This document shows, in pieces, positions 32,964 through 59,909 of a DNA stretch of 64,000 nucleotides. The position numbers and the translations under genes were made by a program. Source of the DNA: Felis catus (taxonomy: Eukaryota); assembly GCF_018350175.1 (NCBI RefSeq), contig NC_058368.1, positions 58,592,001 through 58,656,000 on the forward strand, written 5' to 3'. Numbering within the stretch: position 1 is the stretch's first letter; every line of letters begins with the position of its first letter. The notes below the pieces were generated by a model, which ran no database searches, was not told the DNA's origin, and was given only the letters and a program-made list of their open reading frames with translations.

Positions 32964-33754
32964 AAGAATTTGGCAATATGCATGTTAGTGATATGATAGA
33001 AAAATATTTAGCAAATGGCCATAATATTTGCAATTATAAAATTCTGTGAAAAAGATAGAATTTGGATTTTACGTGGTGAAAAATAAGCAGAATAAGCCAA
33101 TAGGAAAATTTACATAAAAATTTAAATTTCTGGAACAGAGTATATATGTGTATATGTATACAAATATAATATTTCCTATTATATACTTGAAAATATTTTC
33201 TATTTATGTACAAATATGTTTTTAAATTTGCATATCATAGATATATATAAATATATATGTATGATATTCCACTGTCCTTTCCTTTATAATTATAAATCAG
33301 AAATCTTTACATTTTTAGATACTTCTTGTATAAAGAATTCTTTTTTCTATAAATGAAAGGAAAAGGAAACACCATATGTATAGATATAAGATGGGCTGAG
33401 TTTTGCTATTATTGACCTTGAAATCTGACTATAATTTTCCATATAGTCAAACTGAAAATGTCAGGTAAAAATTATTTGGTCTACTATGCACTTAATGCCA
33501 TGGCACATATAAATACCATGGTCCACATTCTTAAAGATTTTACAGTTTAATTTGTATATTTTAGAAATGCTTAGACAGATTTCTATTGCCCATATCTCAT
33601 ATCTAATAGTTTGCTTTTCCACATAGAAAACTTCTAATATGCTCAAGGGATTCTTTGCCTTTTCCTTCAGTAGAAAATTATTAGTAGTGTGTGAATAATA
33701 AAGGGCTTCAATTTTCCAAGATCAGCAAACACTAGCAACACTTCTTTTTTTTTT

Positions 33755-33967
33755 ATTTCTTTTTTTTTTTTTTTTTCTTTTTGGGACAGAGAGAGACAGA
33801 GCATGAACGGGGGAGGGGCAGAAAGAGAGGGAGACACAGAATCGGAAACAGGCTCCAGGCTCCGAGCCATCAGCCCAGAGCCTGACGCGGGGCTCGAACT
33901 CACGGACCGCGAGATCGTGACCTGGCTGAAGTCGGACGCTTAACCGACTGCGCCACCCAGGCGCCCC
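33755..33967 (-). mobile_element. Young felid CanSINE nested at the tail of an older CanSINE
   Basis: CpG-intact; TSD CACTTCTTTTTTTTTT at 33739-33754 and 33967-33982. Confidence 0.96.
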
Positions 33968-33972
33968 ACTTC

Positions 33973-34184
33973 TTTTTTTTTTTTTAATGTTTATTTATTT
34001 TTGAGAGAGAGACAGAGTATGAGTGGGGGGAGAAGCAGAGAGAGAGGGAGACACAGAATCTGAAGCAGGCTCCAGGCTCTGAGCTGTCAGCACAGAGCCC
34101 GATGGGAGGGTTGAACTCACAAACCCTCAGATCGTGACCTGAGCTGAAGTTGGACGCTTACCGTCTGAGCCACCCAGGCACCCC
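33973..34184 (-). mobile_element. Older host CanSINE
   Basis: Outer TSD AACACTAGCAACACTTCTT (33728-33746) and AACACTGGCACCACTTCTT (34186-34204). Confidence 0.95.
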
Positions 34185-34268
34185 TAACACTGGCACCACT
34201 TCTTACCCACCCATGTGCTCTCATCTAGAGAGACATCTTTTAACAACATGAACAACCCTACTAGTCTA

Positions 34269-34914
34269 TGTTAACTTTGAACAATGAACACACTGGGGAG
34301 GAGTCTGGCTCCAGGCCAAAATCCTATGTGTGCTCTCTCAAGCCAGACCATAAGCTTTTATGAAGGCTTACCTGGCACATGTCACACCAAGCCAGGTGCA
34401 CAGCCAGGACACTGTGCTCTGTGAAGGGAGCTCAGGGACCCAGACCCACCTGGCTGGCTATGCTTTGATGCACATGCACATATGCATTCTAGCCTAGGCA
34501 GCTCTATTCACCGGCCTCTCTCGAGCACCTCTGCCAAGACTCCTCCATAATTATAGGCATGCTTTAGAGACACTGTTCTCCACTCGACTCAGACTCAGTA
34601 TGTTTTCACTGCTAACAGCTTCCCCCTCCCTTGCTTGGCCCCTGGGTCAGTAAAAGGGCAGAAGCTTTTAGTTTAGGGCTCCCCAAGCACTGAGAAAATA
34701 CCCACATCTGCACTGAGCCACCAGCCCCTCACTCAGTGCTGTTCCATGGGGAAAAATAGAACACCAAGGGAGCTCATGCTTTTTCCTGTTTATGCTACTT
34801 ATATTATCACAATAAGTGATTAAAGGCTTGACTGTTACTTTCATTTTGACTGTCTTAACTGACCACTTGACATCTGGCAGCTCAGCACTCTCTAGCTCAG
34901 TTCAGCTGTTGACA
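34269..34914 (+). mobile_element. Solo ERVL-type LTR, MER54-like
   Basis: TGTTAAC...GTTGACA terminal inverted repeats, GC-richer than flanks, GTAAAAGGG TATA-like site, ATTAAA polyA signal; family name from memory. Confidence 0.75.
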
Positions 34915-36196
34915 GTTGGTAGGGAGAGAGGGTGATAGATAAAGTTAACTATGGAAGGGTGCTGAGTCAGAAAATGAGCGACATATTGAATGAAATTCAT
35001 TAAAAGAAGTCAAAAGTAATAAAGTATTTCTGATACCCAATAATATTTTCCTAAATTAACTCTATATATACAAGAAAGAATTGTAAGCTGGGAACTTCAG
35101 AGATATTTCCCATATTTGGTTTCCATGGAACTGTGTGCAGTGATGGTTTGTTTCCAGTATACATGTGTTTTAATTAAACAGAGTGCACTACAAAGCAGAG
35201 ATGGTTTCTATCATCTGTGCCATTCCAGGAAAATATTCACAGGTGACATAAGAAAAAAATCAAAGACTAATGCAGCAGTATGATCAGTGCTTATTTTTCT
35301 GTAACTGACTTTATGTCATAGCATTTAAATACAGCACACTCTGTATGAGATAGCACCAAAATTTGCAGTAATTACTAAGATAACATCTCCTGTGAGTGGA
35401 GACATAACTTTGGCACAATCCTACAGAATAGGTGAAGTAGACGAAGGAAAGCAGAAGACAGTCATTATCAGTGTTTTAATTCCTTGGTTACGTTCACGGA
35501 AGTTGATGGCATTAGACATAGTAAATAGGGAGTAAGAGCTTTGACCCCTCAAGGTTCTTTTAAATCCTGAAGGCATTCCACACTCTTGATGGGCTTGGAT
35601 TCACAGCAGTTTGACAACATGTTCCCTTTCTGATTAAAACTGCTGTAGTTAGCTTGAGAGCAGCAGAGAAAGCTGTCAAATTAATAAGCAAGAAAATGCT
35701 GCTTAAAGCAAGATTTTAGAGGCTGTTTCTCACCTCATTTGCCAGCTCTACCTCAGAGACCACTTATTTAAACAGTTCTTACACTGAAATACTTTACATT
35801 CCTATGTTCATTTTAATTATGAACAGTCCTTACACTAGACTGAATTCCCAACATTAATCATGATGTCTACCACAGATCCCAGTTGTTTCTGGTATCTCAA
35901 ATACAGGACAACCTTCTTCCTAGATGATAGACTAAGATTTATTAAAACCAAAACATTCTTCCCCATCCCATCCCTTCTCTCAAGAAAGAATAGCTACTCA
36001 CTATTGGGATTTTTTAGAAATAAATATATCTTGATTCCACTTTGAAGTATTAAACTAAATAAACCCACCCAATATTGTAACCGAGAAAACCCAAATGCCT
36101 AATATCTTTATCCACATGGAATTATTGCAGTATTGGTATAAGAAACAATATTAAATTATGCTGAGGTTAAATGGTCATATAAATATTCAAAGTCTA

Positions 36197-36381
36197 GGGA
36201 CGCCTGGGTGGCTTAGTTGGTTAAGCATCAGAACAGATTTCGGATCAAGTCATGATCTCACATTTCGTGAGATGGAGACCCATGCTGGGCTCTGCGCTAG
36301 GGGCTTGGGATTCTTTCTCTCCCTCTCTCTCTGCCCCTCCCCACTTGTACTCTTTCTCTCAAAATAAACATTAAAAAAATA
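36197..36381 (+). mobile_element. CanSINE
   Basis: TSD AAAT(A/G)TTCAAAGTCTA at 36181-36196 and 36382-36397. Confidence 0.94.
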
Positions 36382-36999: not shown

Positions 37000-37480
37000 G
37001 CAAGATGTAAAGTTTTTTTATTGTTGAATGACTCTTGGTAAACTATTTAAACTTGCTGCCCTTCAATTTACTTACCTGCAAATGAGATTATGAATAAGGC
37101 TTACTTTGTACATTGTTATAAAACATTAGAAAAAAGATTCGTACAATTTATGTAGCATAGAAATTTACAGAGTATAAGCTTAATATATGCTTATCATTAT
37201 TAGATAAGGAAACAAAAATCTTACATGCTAAGAAGTATGTTAACAGTCATAGTGACAATAGTAATAACAATAACAGTAGAACTAATCACTCTAGGTTATA
37301 TGAATTAATGCCATTAATCATCTCAAGTATCTTAGCATATTACTATCCATATTTAACAGTGAAGGAAATTACAGTACAGAAACATTAAGTACATTGTTTA
37401 ACAGCTCTCCACTACCAAGTGACAGAGAGCCGAGGAGACTGGCTCTTCAGGGTCCTTTGACAATGTGCATGTACTGTGTA
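37000..37480. mobile_element. Two MIR relics (sense then antisense)
   Basis: CTTCAATTTACTTACCTGCAAATGAG (sense) and ATCCATATTTAACAGTGAAGGAAATTA...AAGTGACAGAG (antisense). Confidence 0.6.
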
Positions 37481-38565
37481 CATACTGACCATGGTCGTGT
37501 AGCTGTTATTATGAGTAAACATGTGTTTCCTAGTCACTGTGAATTCCTGTAGGCAGTATGACATGACAATTCTAGTGACAATAAAAATTGTAACCAGAAT
37601 GCAAAAGTTAAATCCAGGCTAAAAAGGTAGTTTTCATATTGATATAAAGTCATTATGTTGGAATCTCACAGTGATAGGTTTGAGAGTTCTCAAGGATATG
37701 CTCGGAGCTCCTGCAGCCTGGCAGGATCTTCCCTGGACTACAGGGAATGCCTCAAACGTCAGTGCCTAACACCACTGCACTGAGCATAAAAGAACTGGCA
37801 CATGCTGACTGACCCCTCTCAGCCGAGTCCATCCTGCCCTCACAGTGCTTCCTAAAATTTTTCCCACCTAAAAGTGCTCAGTTTTCACCAGCATTCTACT
37901 TTTCTGGACACAAAATATATGCTTTAGTAAAAATGACCTAGTTTGAGTCTTAAAATCCTAATGAGGGAATAGACTCTTCTCTACAGGGATAGCCAGCAAT
38001 ATTGTACCTGCTTACAGCTCAGTATGGGGTCCTGTGAAAGATCCCGGGCAGTCTGGCAGGAAGGAAGTTCCAGTGGGTATCTGCGTCAGTCAGGAAGCAC
38101 AAGGCATAGGAATGGACAAGACTTCTTGGAAGACATACTCTACCTTTTCTCTCAATTCACTGGGCAGGTGGGGGCAGAGATAAGTTAATTGAAAGCAGAA
38201 GGGGAGAAGTTGCTTCAGGCACTTGCACATTCTGAAAGCACTTGGAATCATAGTAGAGGAAGACTTTGATTGATTTAATTACTACTCAAGTGTAGAGAGG
38301 TTGGAGCCCACAGGCATACTCCAAACATGCACAAGTTTCTTTTGTTAGTTAAATTTATGCTGCTGAGAAAGAATAAAGCTGGATGGATAAGAAACAATCT
38401 GGTGAGGAGTGTCCCATGAAGAAGAAATCCTTATTTTTCTAGTCCTATCTACGTATGACAAAACTGAATGTACTGGGGGGCCATTTTCATCACCAAAAGA
38501 TGGCACAAGGCATTTCCTCAGGCAGGAAATGCCTGGTAACTGTGTCTTCCCAGTTAATTTTAACC

Positions 38566-38792
38566 AATGGTTCACACTATCGGGGTAGTTACTTTGTGCC
38601 AGACACTGTTAGAAAATATATGCTGCATTTGTTCACTTCTAACCCTTACTACAACCCAGTGTTTAAGGTGGGTACTATTTTGATCTGTATTTTTGAGAAT
38701 TTTCTATATCTGGAAAACAGTAGAGCCAGGACTGGTACCCAGGCAGCCTGGCTTTATAGTCTATGTTCCTAGGTACTCCAGGATACTGCCCC
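38566..38792 (-). mobile_element. MIR within the ERV RT region
   Basis: TTACTTTGTGCCAGACACTGT, AGGTGGGTACTATT, AGAGCCAGGACTGGTACCCAGGCAG and ATACTGCC follow antisense MIR. Confidence 0.85.
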
Positions 38793-39220
38793 TAAATTGC
38801 AGCATGGCTAATAATCAACAAAGAAGAGATAAGTAATAAAGACTATAGGTGTTACATCTTTGGAAACCTCTATTTCATCAAATATGTCACTAGAATGATG
38901 TATGGCAACTAAGGACAGTATTTGCAAACCTACGGAAGAGTTGGCCAAAACTGATTTGATGAAGTAAAGTTGAATTCCACCAGATTGTATATTTAGCAAG
39001 GTAAAGACCCATCTTGGCTGCATTGAGATGGGAAAATCAATACTGAGAAAATGCAGGGGCTCCCCATGATGGTAAAATTTATTAATAAAGTTTGCCAAAA
39101 GTTGTTGAAATCATCCCACCCAGCATGAAGTAAAAGGATCGACATTTCTTCAGTCCATAGCTGAGCCCATATTCTTCATATTGGGGACTTTCTGGTGTAC
39201 CTTCTAAAGTTATTTTAAAT

Positions 39221-39433
39221 TTTTTTTTCAACGTTTATTTTTATTTTTGGGACAGAGAGAGACAGAGCATGAACGGGGGAGGGGCAGAGAGAGAGGGAGA
39301 CACAGAATCGGAAACAGGCTCCAGGCTCTGAGCCATCAGCCCAGAACCTGACGCGGGGCTCGAACTCACGGACCGCGAGATCGTGACCTGGCTGAAGTCG
39401 GTCGCTTAACCGACTGCGCCACCCAGGCGCCCC
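39221..39433 (-). mobile_element. Young felid CanSINE interrupting ERV pol
   Basis: Perfect 17-bp TSD CTAAAGTTATTTTAAAT at 39204-39220 and 39434-39450; CpGs intact. Confidence 0.97.
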
Positions 39434-40949
39434 CTAAAGTTATTTTAAATGCAATAAAAGAACAGCAAGCCCAGATCCTAGAATGAATTAAAGAAGCCTG
39501 GGCTACATAATGCTTAAGAATTTATAATATTATTGTCTTAGTCTCACCCAAATTGAATACAGCTCATGTAGACTTTAATTAGCTTCTTTTGTTCTATTCC
39601 ATATTCCCTTATACTCACCAATGTTATAGAATATTTGAGGAAAAGATCCCAAACTGTTTACATGCCATGGTATCCTGGAGGCTACTGAAATAGATATGAT
39701 GGAACATACTGTCATCTAGAATCCAGAAATACACGTATCAGGATTGACATTGCAGGATAGTGGACCGAACAGAATCAATGTAACACGATATGTCAATCAT
39801 CAAACCTCAAATAAAAGTGGTTTATCCAGAAATATGACCAGCTGCTCTACTGGGTTGGTATACTACCTGAAAAGAGAGGATTTGCCATAGTGAAAGAGCC
39901 TATGAGTGTCTGGGCCTCCTATTCAGAAGCTCTTGTATCCTGGATATCCAAGTTGAATGTATCTTACATATATGTTTAGTTTAGATTTACTGTCTCAGAT
40001 AGCTGATATACTTTGTGTAGAAATTGGAAGACAGATGATTTGGCACCATTGACAGCTGACTTGGTCCACCTGCTCAACGTAAGCAGCACTGAATACAGCC
40101 TGGATGATGTTCAACAAGGTTTACTGTAACCATATACCTTGGGCAGTTATATACAAAGGCTTATGAAATTGTAATGGGTTTGGCAGAATGGTCCATCAAA
40201 AACTGATTCATTTATGGATCAATATTTTGAAGCGAGGGGCTTTGTTTGAGTAGAAATAGCACAAATCTCCCAACATGCAAAATATAAATACTCATCAAAG
40301 GAGAAGTTCTTCACCTACATTTTCGAATTCCAAAATAGACCTACTTACACAGATGGCTGAAACTGTGCCTGGACTCACATGTAGCATGGTTAGGCTGGCT
40401 GGATGCTATCCTGTGGGCTGGAAAACACTTGGTGCTACTAACCAAAAATGAAGCAAGCATTCAGACAACTGTTGGGCCAGCAAGGAAACTCCACAACAAT
40501 AGCATCAGAAACTGTTCCCCATGGGACATAGGAAGCACACATTTGGTGAATGGACTAACAGGATCTTTACTACTTTTATCATCGCTCAAGGTAAAAAATA
40601 TCCCTTAATCTGCACCAAATTATTTCTCCAGATCTAGAGAGACTATGATTATAGCAACTATAACCATTACCATCCTCATTAATCACATTTAACAACCATG
40701 AGTATAATAATTTATAAATAAGTAAAAAGTAAGATTATTCATAACCAAAATGATACCAGTAACCAAGAAAATAATTTTACAGCCACAGTAATGAGGGAAC
40801 AGGAAAAGAATAGTAGTAAGCCATGGACTTCTCACTTACCTAACCAGCACTAAAAGGTGGAACAATGCCCCGGCCAACTGTAACTCTATATCTAGCTAAA
40901 AGAGTCATTGTAACCAACGAATCTAAAACAATCTAGAAAGGGAAGAATG

Positions 40950-41800
40950 TACATTTAATGTTTCTGTAATGATGGCTATGAGGATGCAGGAGCAAGCATG
41001 GTATTAACTGTGCAAAATTTCCCCAGAGTACAAGCAGAATGTCCTCATTCCAGAGGCCACCACAATGGGGGAAATAGATTGAAAGTTGTCACAATTTACA
41101 GATAGCTACAATCCATACTAATACTACAATAAAATTTAAATACTAGTGATTTACCCTACTAAAGTGATATTACTGACTGGCTGACCCATAGGTTTATATA
41201 AAATATTCCCTTTTATTGGAGAAGGGATGACGGTAGTGGCACGTGCCATACCTTGCCACCTTCCACAGCAATTTATCTCAGTAGTTCAGAGAGCTACTGA
41301 ACCAGTTGGGATCTGCATAGTGTAGGGTATTATCTCTCAAAATATGATCATAAGCTCTCCAGAAATAAGAGAATGGGAATTGAAAAGTATGATTTCTAAT
41401 ATTTTCACCACCGCAGAAATTATTGGTGACATCATTACAAGAAAACAAATGACATTTCAACAAGAAGTTAGTTGACAGAATTTATGAAATTCTAATACTA
41501 AATCACTTGTTCCTCAACTTCCTGTTTGAAGTTTGAAGAATTTATGCACTCTGTGAAATATATTCTGTGTACATAAATCCGTCAGGGATTTCAGAAAAAA
41601 AGAAACTTTAAGAGTGCAGGGATGTTTTAGTGTCTGTCTCTTAAAACAAGCCAACTGGAATTGAAATTGGTTCAAAAATAGTTCCAATTGGTGTCTGAGG
41701 ATGAGAACAGTACACTGTTCGCTTATTGAATATAAGACAGTGCACCTTGCAATATTTATTAAGTTAGCAATAACATGTTTCATAACAAGGTAGAAAGAAC
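40950..41800 (+). pseudogene. env: Gamma-type retroviral env remnant (SU and TM)
   Basis: Y*LC at 41002 (TAT TAA CTG TGC, decayed CWLC); YY*LADP*VYI/NIPFYWR at 41168-41222; heptad-like ELKSMISNIFTTAE...QQEVS at 41377-41472; ISD-like LILNHL at 41492; *RIYALCEIYSVYINPSG at 41534-41587 (decayed GGICA..CC.YINxSG); Trp-rich NWN*NWF..W at 41653; hydrophobic LAIFIKLAITCFI at 41746. Confidence 0.8.
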
Positions 41801-41886
41801 TACCACATGCACCATGTAGTTCTTGGTTACTAAGTTTGGACAGGAAACAAGAGAGCAGCACTGAAGTCCACAACCAGCGATTGGAA

Positions 41887-42414
41887 TGTGACATGCTTTG
41901 GACAGCCCTGCTGGGCTATGTTTGTCCCAGTTCTTGTAACCTCATACCCACATACAGATTATACTCTTACAGTTGAATTGGACCCATGCATGCATGATAC
42001 TCAGTCATCATCATAAAACATGAGAATAATGTAGCAAATTGACCCTGATGAGACAGAAGAAGATATTTTACCCCAACCTGGATTGACGAGGTGAAGCTTG
42101 CTAAAGGTAAATGCAGTTGTGATATAAAAGGGGCAGAAGAAATTCTGTAATATCCCACTCAGGGCTTGGCTGCAGAGTACCAATGCCACCTACCTGAGGA
42201 TTTCCTGAGATAATATGCAGATACTCAGGGTAATCCTCTCACTGAATAACCCTGGCCAGATACACTATGCATCCCTCTGCTAATAATATATCTTTCCAGC
42301 TATTGAAGTAAAATTTTACTTTTATAAGATTTATGTGTCAAAGTACTCTTTTTTTTTTCCCAAGCCTGTAGAGAGATTCGTGTGTCTACTTTAAGAAGTT
42401 AAAAACCTGTCACG
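41887..42414 (+). mobile_element. 3' LTR of the ancient ERV
   Basis: Follows the decayed PPT CCAGCGATTGGAA; ends TGTGACA...TGTCACG (6/7-bp inverted repeat); TATAAAAG at 42123-42130; AGTAAA at 42307-42312 followed by a T/G-rich tract. Confidence 0.75.
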
Positions 42415-42475
42415 TTTACATTGTAGACTCCAATAGTATTGCAATGCATACATTTCTTTCTTTAAAGCCTATGCT

Positions 42476-42727
42476 GGGGCGCCTGGGTGGCTCAGTCGGT
42501 TAAGCGTCCGACTTCAGCTCAGGTCACAATCTCGTAGTCCGCGCGCTCGAGCCCCGCATCGGCCTCTGGACTGATGGCTCAGAGCCTGGAGCCTGCTTCC
42601 GATTCTGTGTCTCCCTCTCTCTCTGCCCCTCCCCCGTTCATGCTCTGTCTCTCTCTCTGCCCCTCCCCCGTTCATGCTCTGTCTCTCTCTGTCTGAAAAA
42701 TAAATAAACGTTAAAAAAATAAATAAA
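42476..42727 (+). mobile_element. Young CanSINE with a 34-bp internal tandem duplication
   Basis: TSD TAAAGCCTATGCT at 42463-42475 and 42728-42740; unit repeated at 42617-42650 and 42651-42684. Confidence 0.96.
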
Positions 42728-43666: not shown

Positions 43667-43827
43667 TTATCATTCTTTTTTGTTTAAGCATTGCAACCTC
43701 AGCAGCAAGCATAATGACTGGTTCTTAGTAGCAACTCAATAAATATTTATGGAATAAACAGATAAGAAAAGGATGGATGATGAAATTTAATTGTCCAACT
43801 TTTCCTCAGGCATCAGGTATAGCTGTA

Positions 43828-44260
43828 TGTGGTAGGTGACCTCTGAGATGGCTCCAATGACCTGCACGTCCTGGTATTCACAAATAGAATAGGGCAGAAA
43901 TTATTGATGTCAACTCTAAGATTATGTTATAAAGTGACTGTGGCTTCTGCCTTGGGTGTTATCTTTTGCTCTCTTTTGGATCACTTGATCTGAAAGAAGC
44001 CAGTTGGCATGTCCTGAGGCAACCCTTGGGAGAAATAGCTTTTGTGGCAAGCCATGCCAATGACCACACAAGCTGAGCCTTTCTCAGATGAGCCTGTATG
44101 TGTAGCTGATGTTGGGATACAACTTAATGAGAGACATTGAACCAAAGGCATCCAGCTAAACTGTAAGTGGATCCCTGATCCATTGAGACTGAGAAATAAT
44201 TTTATTGTTTTAAGATACTATGTTTTGAAATAATTTATTATAAAGCCCTAGATAATTAAC
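43828..44260 (+). mobile_element. MaLR solo LTR, MLT1F-like
   Basis: TGTGGTAGG...CTGAGATGGCTCCAATGA...CCTGGTATTCAC start; TTGTTTTAAG...TAATTTATTA..AGATAA end. Confidence 0.8.
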
Positions 44261-58390: not shown

Positions 58391-58864
58391 AATGGAGTGA
58401 ATAACATTAAAATTAAAAATTAATGAGAAAGAAAATGAGAACAAAGAGCAGAGCTTGGGAATTCCTACCCAAACCTCAAAAAAAGTACAGAAATTAGTGA
58501 GATCCGTGGAGAAGAGGCCCAGGAGTATGAGAAGAAATCAGAAAAGAACAATGTAACAAAAAAAAAGGGAGAATTGCCAGAATAAGACGATGGTCAACTG
58601 TATGAAATGTGGCAGTGTGCAATTAAAAGGGAAAGACAAAGTCAAGGAAATTAAATTTGGGGCTTGATTTTTATTATTAGTTTTTACTTAGGTAATTATA
58701 AATTGTAATAAACTACTATACTGTAGGTAAAACTGGGAAAGAAGCAAAAAAATAGACAGTAAGAAAATCAGATAGATAACTATAGACCTCACTTTCACCT
58801 GTGCTCTTGACCAGCCACTTTGGTTAAATTTTGCTCTTTTAATTGAAATTTCTTTCTGACTTGA

Positions 58865-59098
58865 CTCCTTCCTCCCTTCTTCCCTTCCTCTCTTCATCCC
58901 TTCTTCTCCTTCTCCTTCTCCTCCTCCTCCTCCTCCCCCTCCTCCTCCTCCTTCTCCTCCTCCTTCTCCTCCTCCTCCTCCTCCTCCTCCTCCTCCTCCT
59001 TCTCCTCCTCCTCCTCCTTCTCCTCCTCCTCCTCCTCCTCCTCCTCCTCCTCCTCCTCCTTCTCCTCCTCCTTCTCCTTCTCCTTCTTCTCCTTCTCC
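58865..59098. repeat. (CCT/CTT)n polypyrimidine microsatellite
   Basis: Uninterrupted C/T from 58897 to 59098. Confidence 0.97.
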
Positions 59099-59195
59099 AA
59101 TAAAATTTTAATTGGTTGGGGAATACTGATGGTAGGGAGGCACCAATATGGAGTGAGAAGAATAAGATTCTGTCTCCTAACCTACAGGTTGAAGA

Positions 59196-59909
59196 GGGGA
59201 TCCACTTGCACTGTTGGCAGGAATGTAATCCGGCACAGTCACTCCGGAAAACAGTGTGGAGTTTCCTCAAAAAATTAAAACTAGAACTACCCTATGACCC
59301 AGCAATAGCACTGCTAGGAATCTACCCAAGGGATACAGGAGTGCTGATGCATAGGAACACTTATACCCCAATGTTTATAGCAGCACTTTCCACAATAGCC
59401 AAATTATGAAAAGAGCTTAAATGTCCGTCAACTGATGAGTGGATAAAGAAGATGTGGTTTATATATACATTGATATACTACTTGACAATGAGAAAGAATG
59501 AAATTTTCCACTTGCAACAACGTGGATGGAACTGGAGGGTATTATGTAAGTGAAATAAGTCAGTCAGAGAAAGACAGGTATCATATGTTTTCACTCATAT
59601 GTGGAATTTGAGAAACTTAACAGAAGACCATGGAGGAAGGGAAGGGGAAAAATAGTTTCAAACAGAGAGGAAGACAAACCATATGAGACTCTTAAATACA
59701 GAGAACAAACTGAGGGTTGATGGGAGGGAGCTGGGGAGAAGGGGAAATGGGTGATGGGCATTGTGGACGGCACTTTTTGGAATGAGCACTGGATGTTGTA
59801 TGTAAGTGATGAATCATGGGAATCTACTCCCAAAGCCAAGAGGACACTGTACACACTGTAGGTTAGCTAACTTGACAATAAATTATATTTTAAAAACATT
59901 AAAAAATAA
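59196..59909 (+). mobile_element. 5'-truncated carnivore/felid L1 (ORF2 C-terminus and 3' UTR)
   Basis: Encodes HCWQEC...KTVWSFLKKLKLELPYDPAIALLGIYP...PMFIAALSTIAK; A tail; TSD ACA(G/A)GTTGAAGA at 59184-59195 and 59910-59921. Confidence 0.97.

Follow-up and report, generated by a model that had tools for sequence, protein, structure and literature searches.

The 64-kb stretch of DNA analysed here, which we call the window, most likely carries on its plus strand a dead endogenous retrovirus (ERV), inert today, in which a class III-like pol at about 38.4 to 40.9 kb precedes a gamma-type env at about 41.0 to 41.8 kb and what is probably a 3' LTR. Its DNA is mammalian and AT-rich, with numerous SINE copies, presumably feline-type carnivore SINEs; a sequencing run that contains part of the stretch carries the label of a feline metagenome. 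Pol and the C-terminal half of env show homology to retroviral sequences, stand in that order and carry breaks; their membership of a single provirus is suggested by this arrangement. An earlier note on this DNA had proposed a gamma-type env remnant downstream of a class III-like pol, and the proposal held, the env against profiles and the pol (z 4.6-4.9) against one reference contig, L148, only. All homology tests compared the 64-kb window with reference sequences, and neither an orthologue nor a paralogue was seen. The env remnant was resolved into the following features.

41002-41013, plus strand: candidate decayed SU CxxC motif, read as Y-stop-L-C, from the sequence and block profiles (moderate support)
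41168-41256, plus strand: SU C-terminal conserved block in three frames; the lone block is placed here with z 2.3 (7 of 300 shuffles, 10 of 140 bins)
41290-41475, plus strand: SU/TM cleavage zone, fusion-peptide zone and first heptad repeat, with R-X-K/R-R gone; lone block z 3.1 (2 of 300 shuffles, 5 of 140 bins)
41489-41584, plus strand: immunosuppressive-domain (ISD) zone and decayed CX6CC loop; the ISD of all five profiles aligns here, hhalign E 0.1; the block scores z 0.0 alone and z 3.9 with the heptad (1 of 300 shuffles, 1 of 140 bins)
41640-41795, plus strand: Trp-containing membrane-proximal zone and probable anchor, from end-to-end alignments only, the lone block being placed elsewhere; hydropathy 1.46

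The strings quoted in the earlier note are all present, with correct letters and coordinates, and its count of differences between 41002-41013 and a CWLC-coding 12-mer was right. The CWLC-like rule that it applied is satisfied at 3 of approximately 128,000 positions on both strands. With five CxxC variants allowed, 20 sites qualify by G>A changes only and 47 by any transitions, corresponding to 0.05-0.11 expected per 300 nt. One CxxC-block profile was placed at 41002 (z 1.6), whereas another preferred a position about 45 nt upstream (z 2.5); the identity of the site as CWLC is weakly supported. Further downstream, YY-stop-LADP-stop-VYI (41168), NIPFYWR and GMTVVARAIP occupy three successive frames. 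The frame from 41224 to 41472 (83 codons) does contain a single stop, but at 41323, after ICIV, and not between VVQR and ATE as had been described. LILNHL and the stop followed by RIYALCEIYSVYINPSG share one frame from 41477.

The decayed CX6CC region is one codon short, as previously noted, and it holds no cysteine at the aligned TM columns. By hand count, the stretch from the ISD to the loop end has 27 codons versus 29 in the references, and one of the two missing codons falls inside the CX6CC zone. The furin site R-X-K/R-R is absent; the zone aligned with it reads VVQRA, which fits in position, the motif having decayed. Downstream of the loop there are three Trp residues and then a modest hydrophobic run, whose best 19-residue Kyte-Doolittle mean is 1.46 at 41737. 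The anchor is weakly supported; its block alone scored z 0.1 and was placed elsewhere.

Collinear homology of the SU C terminus and TM to gamma-type Env was detected by our own frameshift-aware scoring and not by standard tools. The method is a codon-level profile alignment, with our own code and penalties, that tolerates decay, stops and frameshifts. A first end-to-end run without block shuffles gave z 2.9 against plain shuffles, yet 5 of 84 bins scored higher. In the final setting a fixed C-terminal span was aligned end to end with 41000-41900 as the target and composition-preserving block shuffles as the control. The profile of bird and turtle ERV Envs (21 sequences, from 25 proteins found with L082 as seed) yielded z 4.7, reached by 0 of 300 shuffles and 0 of 140 bins; this family is a post hoc choice, since L082 was picked for its resemblance to the window by eye. 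For the RDR-like profile (60 sequences, from a source of 120 listed RDR/syncytin-like proteins) the values were z 2.9, 2 of 300 and 1 of 140, and for the virus-isolate profile (20 sequences, 20 of 22 loci being usable) z 3.0, 0 of 300 and 1 of 140. A pooled profile of 37 sequences gave z 3.5 (1 of 300, 1 of 140). A fish-like profile from metagenomes, for which 87 pattern matches had been reduced to 14 Envs by profile and to 9 non-redundant sequences, gave z 1.4 (26 of 300, 9 of 140).

With four of the five profiles 41000-41900 outscored 139 or 140 of the 140 genomic bins. The ISD and loop were aligned with 41489-41584 by every one of the five, and the ISD itself falls at 41489-41520. Over eight parameter and limit settings z ranged from 2.7 to 5.0 for the avian family, from 2.3 to 3.0 for RDR and from 1.8 to 3.3 for the pooled profile. 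The score was weaker when the span was widened to 40640-42140, and the reverse-complement control gave z -0.9. The earlier note's description of the gene as reconstructable was not supported, identity to the best profile being approximately 19% (45 of 231 columns). The strongest false profile matches in the window came from a (CCT/CTT)n run that is followed, within 58860-59500, by what we take to be an L1 ORF2-like 3' fragment.

Scored separately, the SU end, cleavage/heptad and ISD blocks fell in order and at family spacing. The SU block lies 110 codons from the ISD, compared with 113-120 in 11 of 12 references measured, and the heptad motif lies 40 codons from the ISD, compared with 39 in all 12. 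The SU N-terminal half had no recognisable match (z 0.6). Env's C-terminal half as a whole exceeds chance; most of its single pieces do not. The earlier note had also proposed an internal deletion, and the candidate CxxC is 165 codons from the ISD versus 190-341 in 34 references. This deletion is weakly supported, because the distance depends on the CWLC call and because members of the best-matching family are mostly only about 400-420 residues long naturally.

The standard searches of env were negative. Six whole frames and 12 pieces matched zero retroviral families in Pfam, so the expected TLV_coat (PF00429) match did not materialize in any single frame or piece. A PDB sequence search returned nothing, as did hmmsearch and tblastn with reference Envs at 40.6-42.2 kb. 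The lone phmmer match of the main env frame among 1.84 billion representative proteins, P0002, was rejected as an ankyrin-repeat protein scoring by summed repeats. None of the hhalign comparisons was significant (E 0.28, 0.1 and 0.17), although they placed the ISD and heptad motif on the expected strings. Amino-acid local alignment gave 16 bits, where the mean over the genomic bins was 17.7, and the local-mode frameshift-aware score with the bird/turtle family did not beat the genomic bins. These failures, the weak single blocks, the result of the fish-like profile and the alignment freedom that three frameshifts provide are what one would see if the env had been read, by pattern-matching, into neutral AT-rich sequence that happens to follow a pol fragment. 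We regard this as very unlikely: two profiles that had not been picked for resemblance reached z of about 3, a score exceeded in 1 of 140 bins, three separately tested blocks have the right order and spacing, and the position directly after integrase is the place of env.

The remnant cannot encode a working envelope. Its best path contains nine stops (41144, 41147, 41165, 41174, 41323, 41534, 41609, 41642 and 41791) and at least three frameshifts (near 41190, 41470 and 41685), and its longest stop-free run is 49 codons. We consider env dead because of these stops and frameshifts and of the CX6CC zone without cysteine; its non-coding state had been recognized before, and no open frame of the kind seen in syncytins and co-opted env genes is present. 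CpG dinucleotides in env are depleted to genome level (observed/expected ratio, 0.21, compared with 0.16 for pol and 0.17 for the window). It is highly improbable that the host has retained the remnant for a function of its own, as a noncoding transcript or regulatory element, or that an intact co-opted orthologue exists in another mammal. Env co-option is frequent in mammals according to the available part of PMC9604959, and contigs of six runs (RNA, recorded or guessed) hold 0.08-0.67 of the words of 39500-42450, small shares not being counted as evidence. Contigs cannot show expression, however, and the stretch ends beside SINE-rich DNA; the remnant had zero Rfam matches and lacks an SPRE core motif, and its decay looks neutral. 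A blastn search against plasmids also gave zero matches.

Upstream of env, the following pol remnants and insertions were located.

38400-39212, plus strand: reverse transcriptase (RT) remnant of an ERV-L-like (class III) pol; 39027-39157 against L148 pol, z 4.8 (0 of 200 shuffles); the part before 38930, read by eye from motifs only, is presumably RT
38570-38770, plus strand: SINE fragment, presumably MIR-like and with presumed limits, probably inside RT as judged from spacing; two MIR motifs match in order and are unique in the window (0 of 100 shuffles for the one at 38590, 4 of 100 for the one at 38666)
39221-39433, minus strand: young SINE in pol, presumably of a carnivore-type family, with a 17-bp target duplication (39204-39220 and 39434-39450); 93% identical to a copy at 33747, CpG observed/expected 0.91
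39645-40379, plus strand: tether and RNase H remnant; 39645-39788, z 3.3 (1 of 200 shuffles); 40147-40379 is collinear, z 0.9 alone
40500-40890, plus strand: integrase core remnant; by eye, 40758-40850 has 9 of 31 ungapped identities with MuERV-L Pol as given in the available part of PMC4724089 supplement 2

L148 is a vertebrate ERV contig from a pattern scan with RT, RNase H and integrase domains. Aligned end to end with it, 38770-40760 scored z 4.9, a value reached by 0 of 60 shuffles and by none of the 64 bins; where this alignment crosses the SINE it is wrong. In local mode z was 2.6, with one bin higher. In the comparison run L148 reached z 4.6 versus at most 1.3 for 18 other pols, all of them foamy, gamma or delta sequences (six each, out of 17, 11 and 7, respectively). 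Foamy, gamma and delta pol profiles on three segments gave z up to 1.0, an RT profile pooled from these three groups missed the part before 38930, and isolate integrase profiles on the integrase core were not significant (z 1.2-1.5). A word-indexed search with one pol frame yielded 0 of 343 candidates. We called L148 class III-like because its integrase ends resemble MuERV-L Pol by eye (PMC4724089 supplement 2, in its available part) and because a quick tree places it, with a long branch, in none of the gamma, delta and foamy clades; its raw scores are nearer to gamma than to foamy pols. An ERV-L-like (class III-like) nature of the window pol is supported, with a single reference labelled by motif likeness and a quick tree. 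The L148 contig (6,894 bp) also has a 600-codon open env-like frame without a Pfam match, has apparently lost the RT N-terminal part and the integrase middle, and is filed inside a Bacteroidales assembly, which makes it host contamination.

The integrase core is separated from the SU end block by about 100 codons and from the candidate CxxC by about 35. A dUTPase would not fit into these 100 codons. They are also too few for an integrase tail together with a complete SU, so sequence was probably lost around the integrase end and env start. Judged from this spacing, the locus departs from the canonical ERV-L layout, in which a dUTPase follows integrase and env is missing. The site at 41002 was also tried as an integrase tail and rejected (class III integrase tail, z -0.2). 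The same figures could mean that the env is real but came from a second, class I element beside or inside an env-less ERV-L, the join being secondary: some 35 codons are too few for an integrase tail and env start and imply a break, the search for a class III integrase tail was negative, and mosaic and artificially joined chains are common, as stated in the available part of PMC4724089. Such an origin is unlikely nonetheless, as both parts share a strand and the canonical order of pol, env, PPT and LTR, no LTR-like or class I pol sequence was seen between them, and their CpG decay is similar (0.16 and 0.21).

Downstream of env, reading of the sequence pointed to one further feature.

42126-42420, plus strand: PPT-like run (42126-42142) and candidate 3' LTR, from TG at 42146 to CA at 42420

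No 5' partner of this candidate was found in the window; pairings with 34186-34930, 35000-36200 or 37420-37960 were no better than shuffles and were rejected. A search for gag upstream with pieces of L148 had z 2.0 as its highest value, and 15 of 96 bins scored as much. The interval 34186-34910, 8.2 kb upstream of the candidate LTR and without similarity to it, is GC-richer and LTR-like by eye, with an ATTAAA near 34820 that resembles a poly(A) signal. It is preceded at 33747-34184 by a head-to-tail pair of SINE copies (period, 217), and another SINE lies just past the candidate LTR at 42476-42727; its target duplication measures 13 bp, and 34 bp are duplicated within it. We take 37040-37420 to hold MIR-like fragments and 43820-44260 to resemble a MaLR (MLT1-type) LTR. 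The segment 37088-37128 matches 40705-40744 on the opposite strand (80% over 41 bp; E, 6e-4), either by chance between AT-rich sequences or because the integrase region holds another short piece of MIR.

In the available part of PMC3758187, MIRs inside an ERV-L identify a copy that predates the placental split. A Mesozoic age of the present element is plausible on the strength of the MIR-like insert in its pol, as in that copy. The canonical ERV-Ls (HERV-L and MuERV-L), including this pan-placental copy, resemble the locus in pol motifs and in the MIR insertion, which points to great age, as far as that source goes, but they have a dUTPase and lack env, and the locus is the opposite: env is present and there is no room for a dUTPase.

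A class III pol followed by a gamma-type env has precedents. In the available parts of the sources, recombination between ERV1 and ERV3 is reported to have produced ERV3 families with ERV1-like envelopes, namely HERV18, HERVL32 and HERVL66 (Kojima 2018, PMC5753468), and a class I env was found wherever a class III ERV had a credible one, with further cases in turtle, frog, horse and a primate (Vargiu 2016, PMC4724089). The arrangement of the locus is that of HERVS (HERV18/LTR18), HERVL32, HERVL66 and HERVL chain 4244 as described there, and a further likeness to the ERV-S type is that no dUTPase would fit behind the integrase core. The locus is far more decayed than these elements, with PBS, gag and 5' LTR not found in the window, and its ISD matches none of the ISD strings of ERV-S-type families in the available published material. 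XtERV-S of Xenopus tropicalis (Yedavalli 2021, PMC8278194; restated in the review PMC10536682) similarly combines a class III pol with a class I TM and a short env (about 440 residues by Table 2), but, according to the accessible portions, it is intact, expressed and equipped with a dUTPase, whereas the locus is dead.

Among Envs, those of birds and turtles (P0123-P0146; labelled 'HEMO-like', 'PABLB-like', 'ERV-V2-like' and 'syncytin-2-like') gave the best profile and share the heptad motif and block spacing, at a mere 19% or so identity and by post hoc choice. They are closest within the reference panel only, since the panel is without ERV-V, PABL, MER34 and PRIMA41 Envs. Metagenome contigs L030, L031, L038, L059, L067, L071, L072, L075, L080, L081, L082, L086, L090 and L098 also carry env genes of vertebrate ERVs, and on several of them the open frames are long; they are host DNA in metagenome collections. 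No publication on the locus was found by searches which, without a repeat-family name, could not have identified it; an entry in a catalogue or supplement is possible.

Gamma-type Env is a disulphide-linked SU/TM fusion protein that serves entry. The ancestor of the element would have been an interclass recombinant with an ERV-L/ERV-S-like (class III) pol and a gamma-type (class I) env, whose covalently linked SU/TM protein would have mediated entry into cells, including those of the germ line. After integration the copy would have decayed neutrally through stops, frameshifts, CpG loss and SINE insertions, and it presumably makes no protein today. Because class III pols with class I envs have already been described in other animals, we consider it an ordinary viral fossil.

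As it stands, the locus adds one more decayed case to the documented capture of envelopes by class III retroviruses. It is doubtful, although conceivable, that it belongs to a Mesozoic class III lineage absent from the catalogues and predating the placental radiation, as the MIR inside RT would indicate, with an env from the short bird/turtle 'HEMO/PABLB-like' lineage. If so, it would count as one of the oldest mammalian records of an env-bearing class III retrovirus to which a date can be put. Should it prove orthologous across placentals and lie outside the catalogued families, an enveloped class III lineage would be dated to more than about 100 million years, and this would bear on whether ancestors of ERV-L had an env, a question left open in the available part of PMC4724089.
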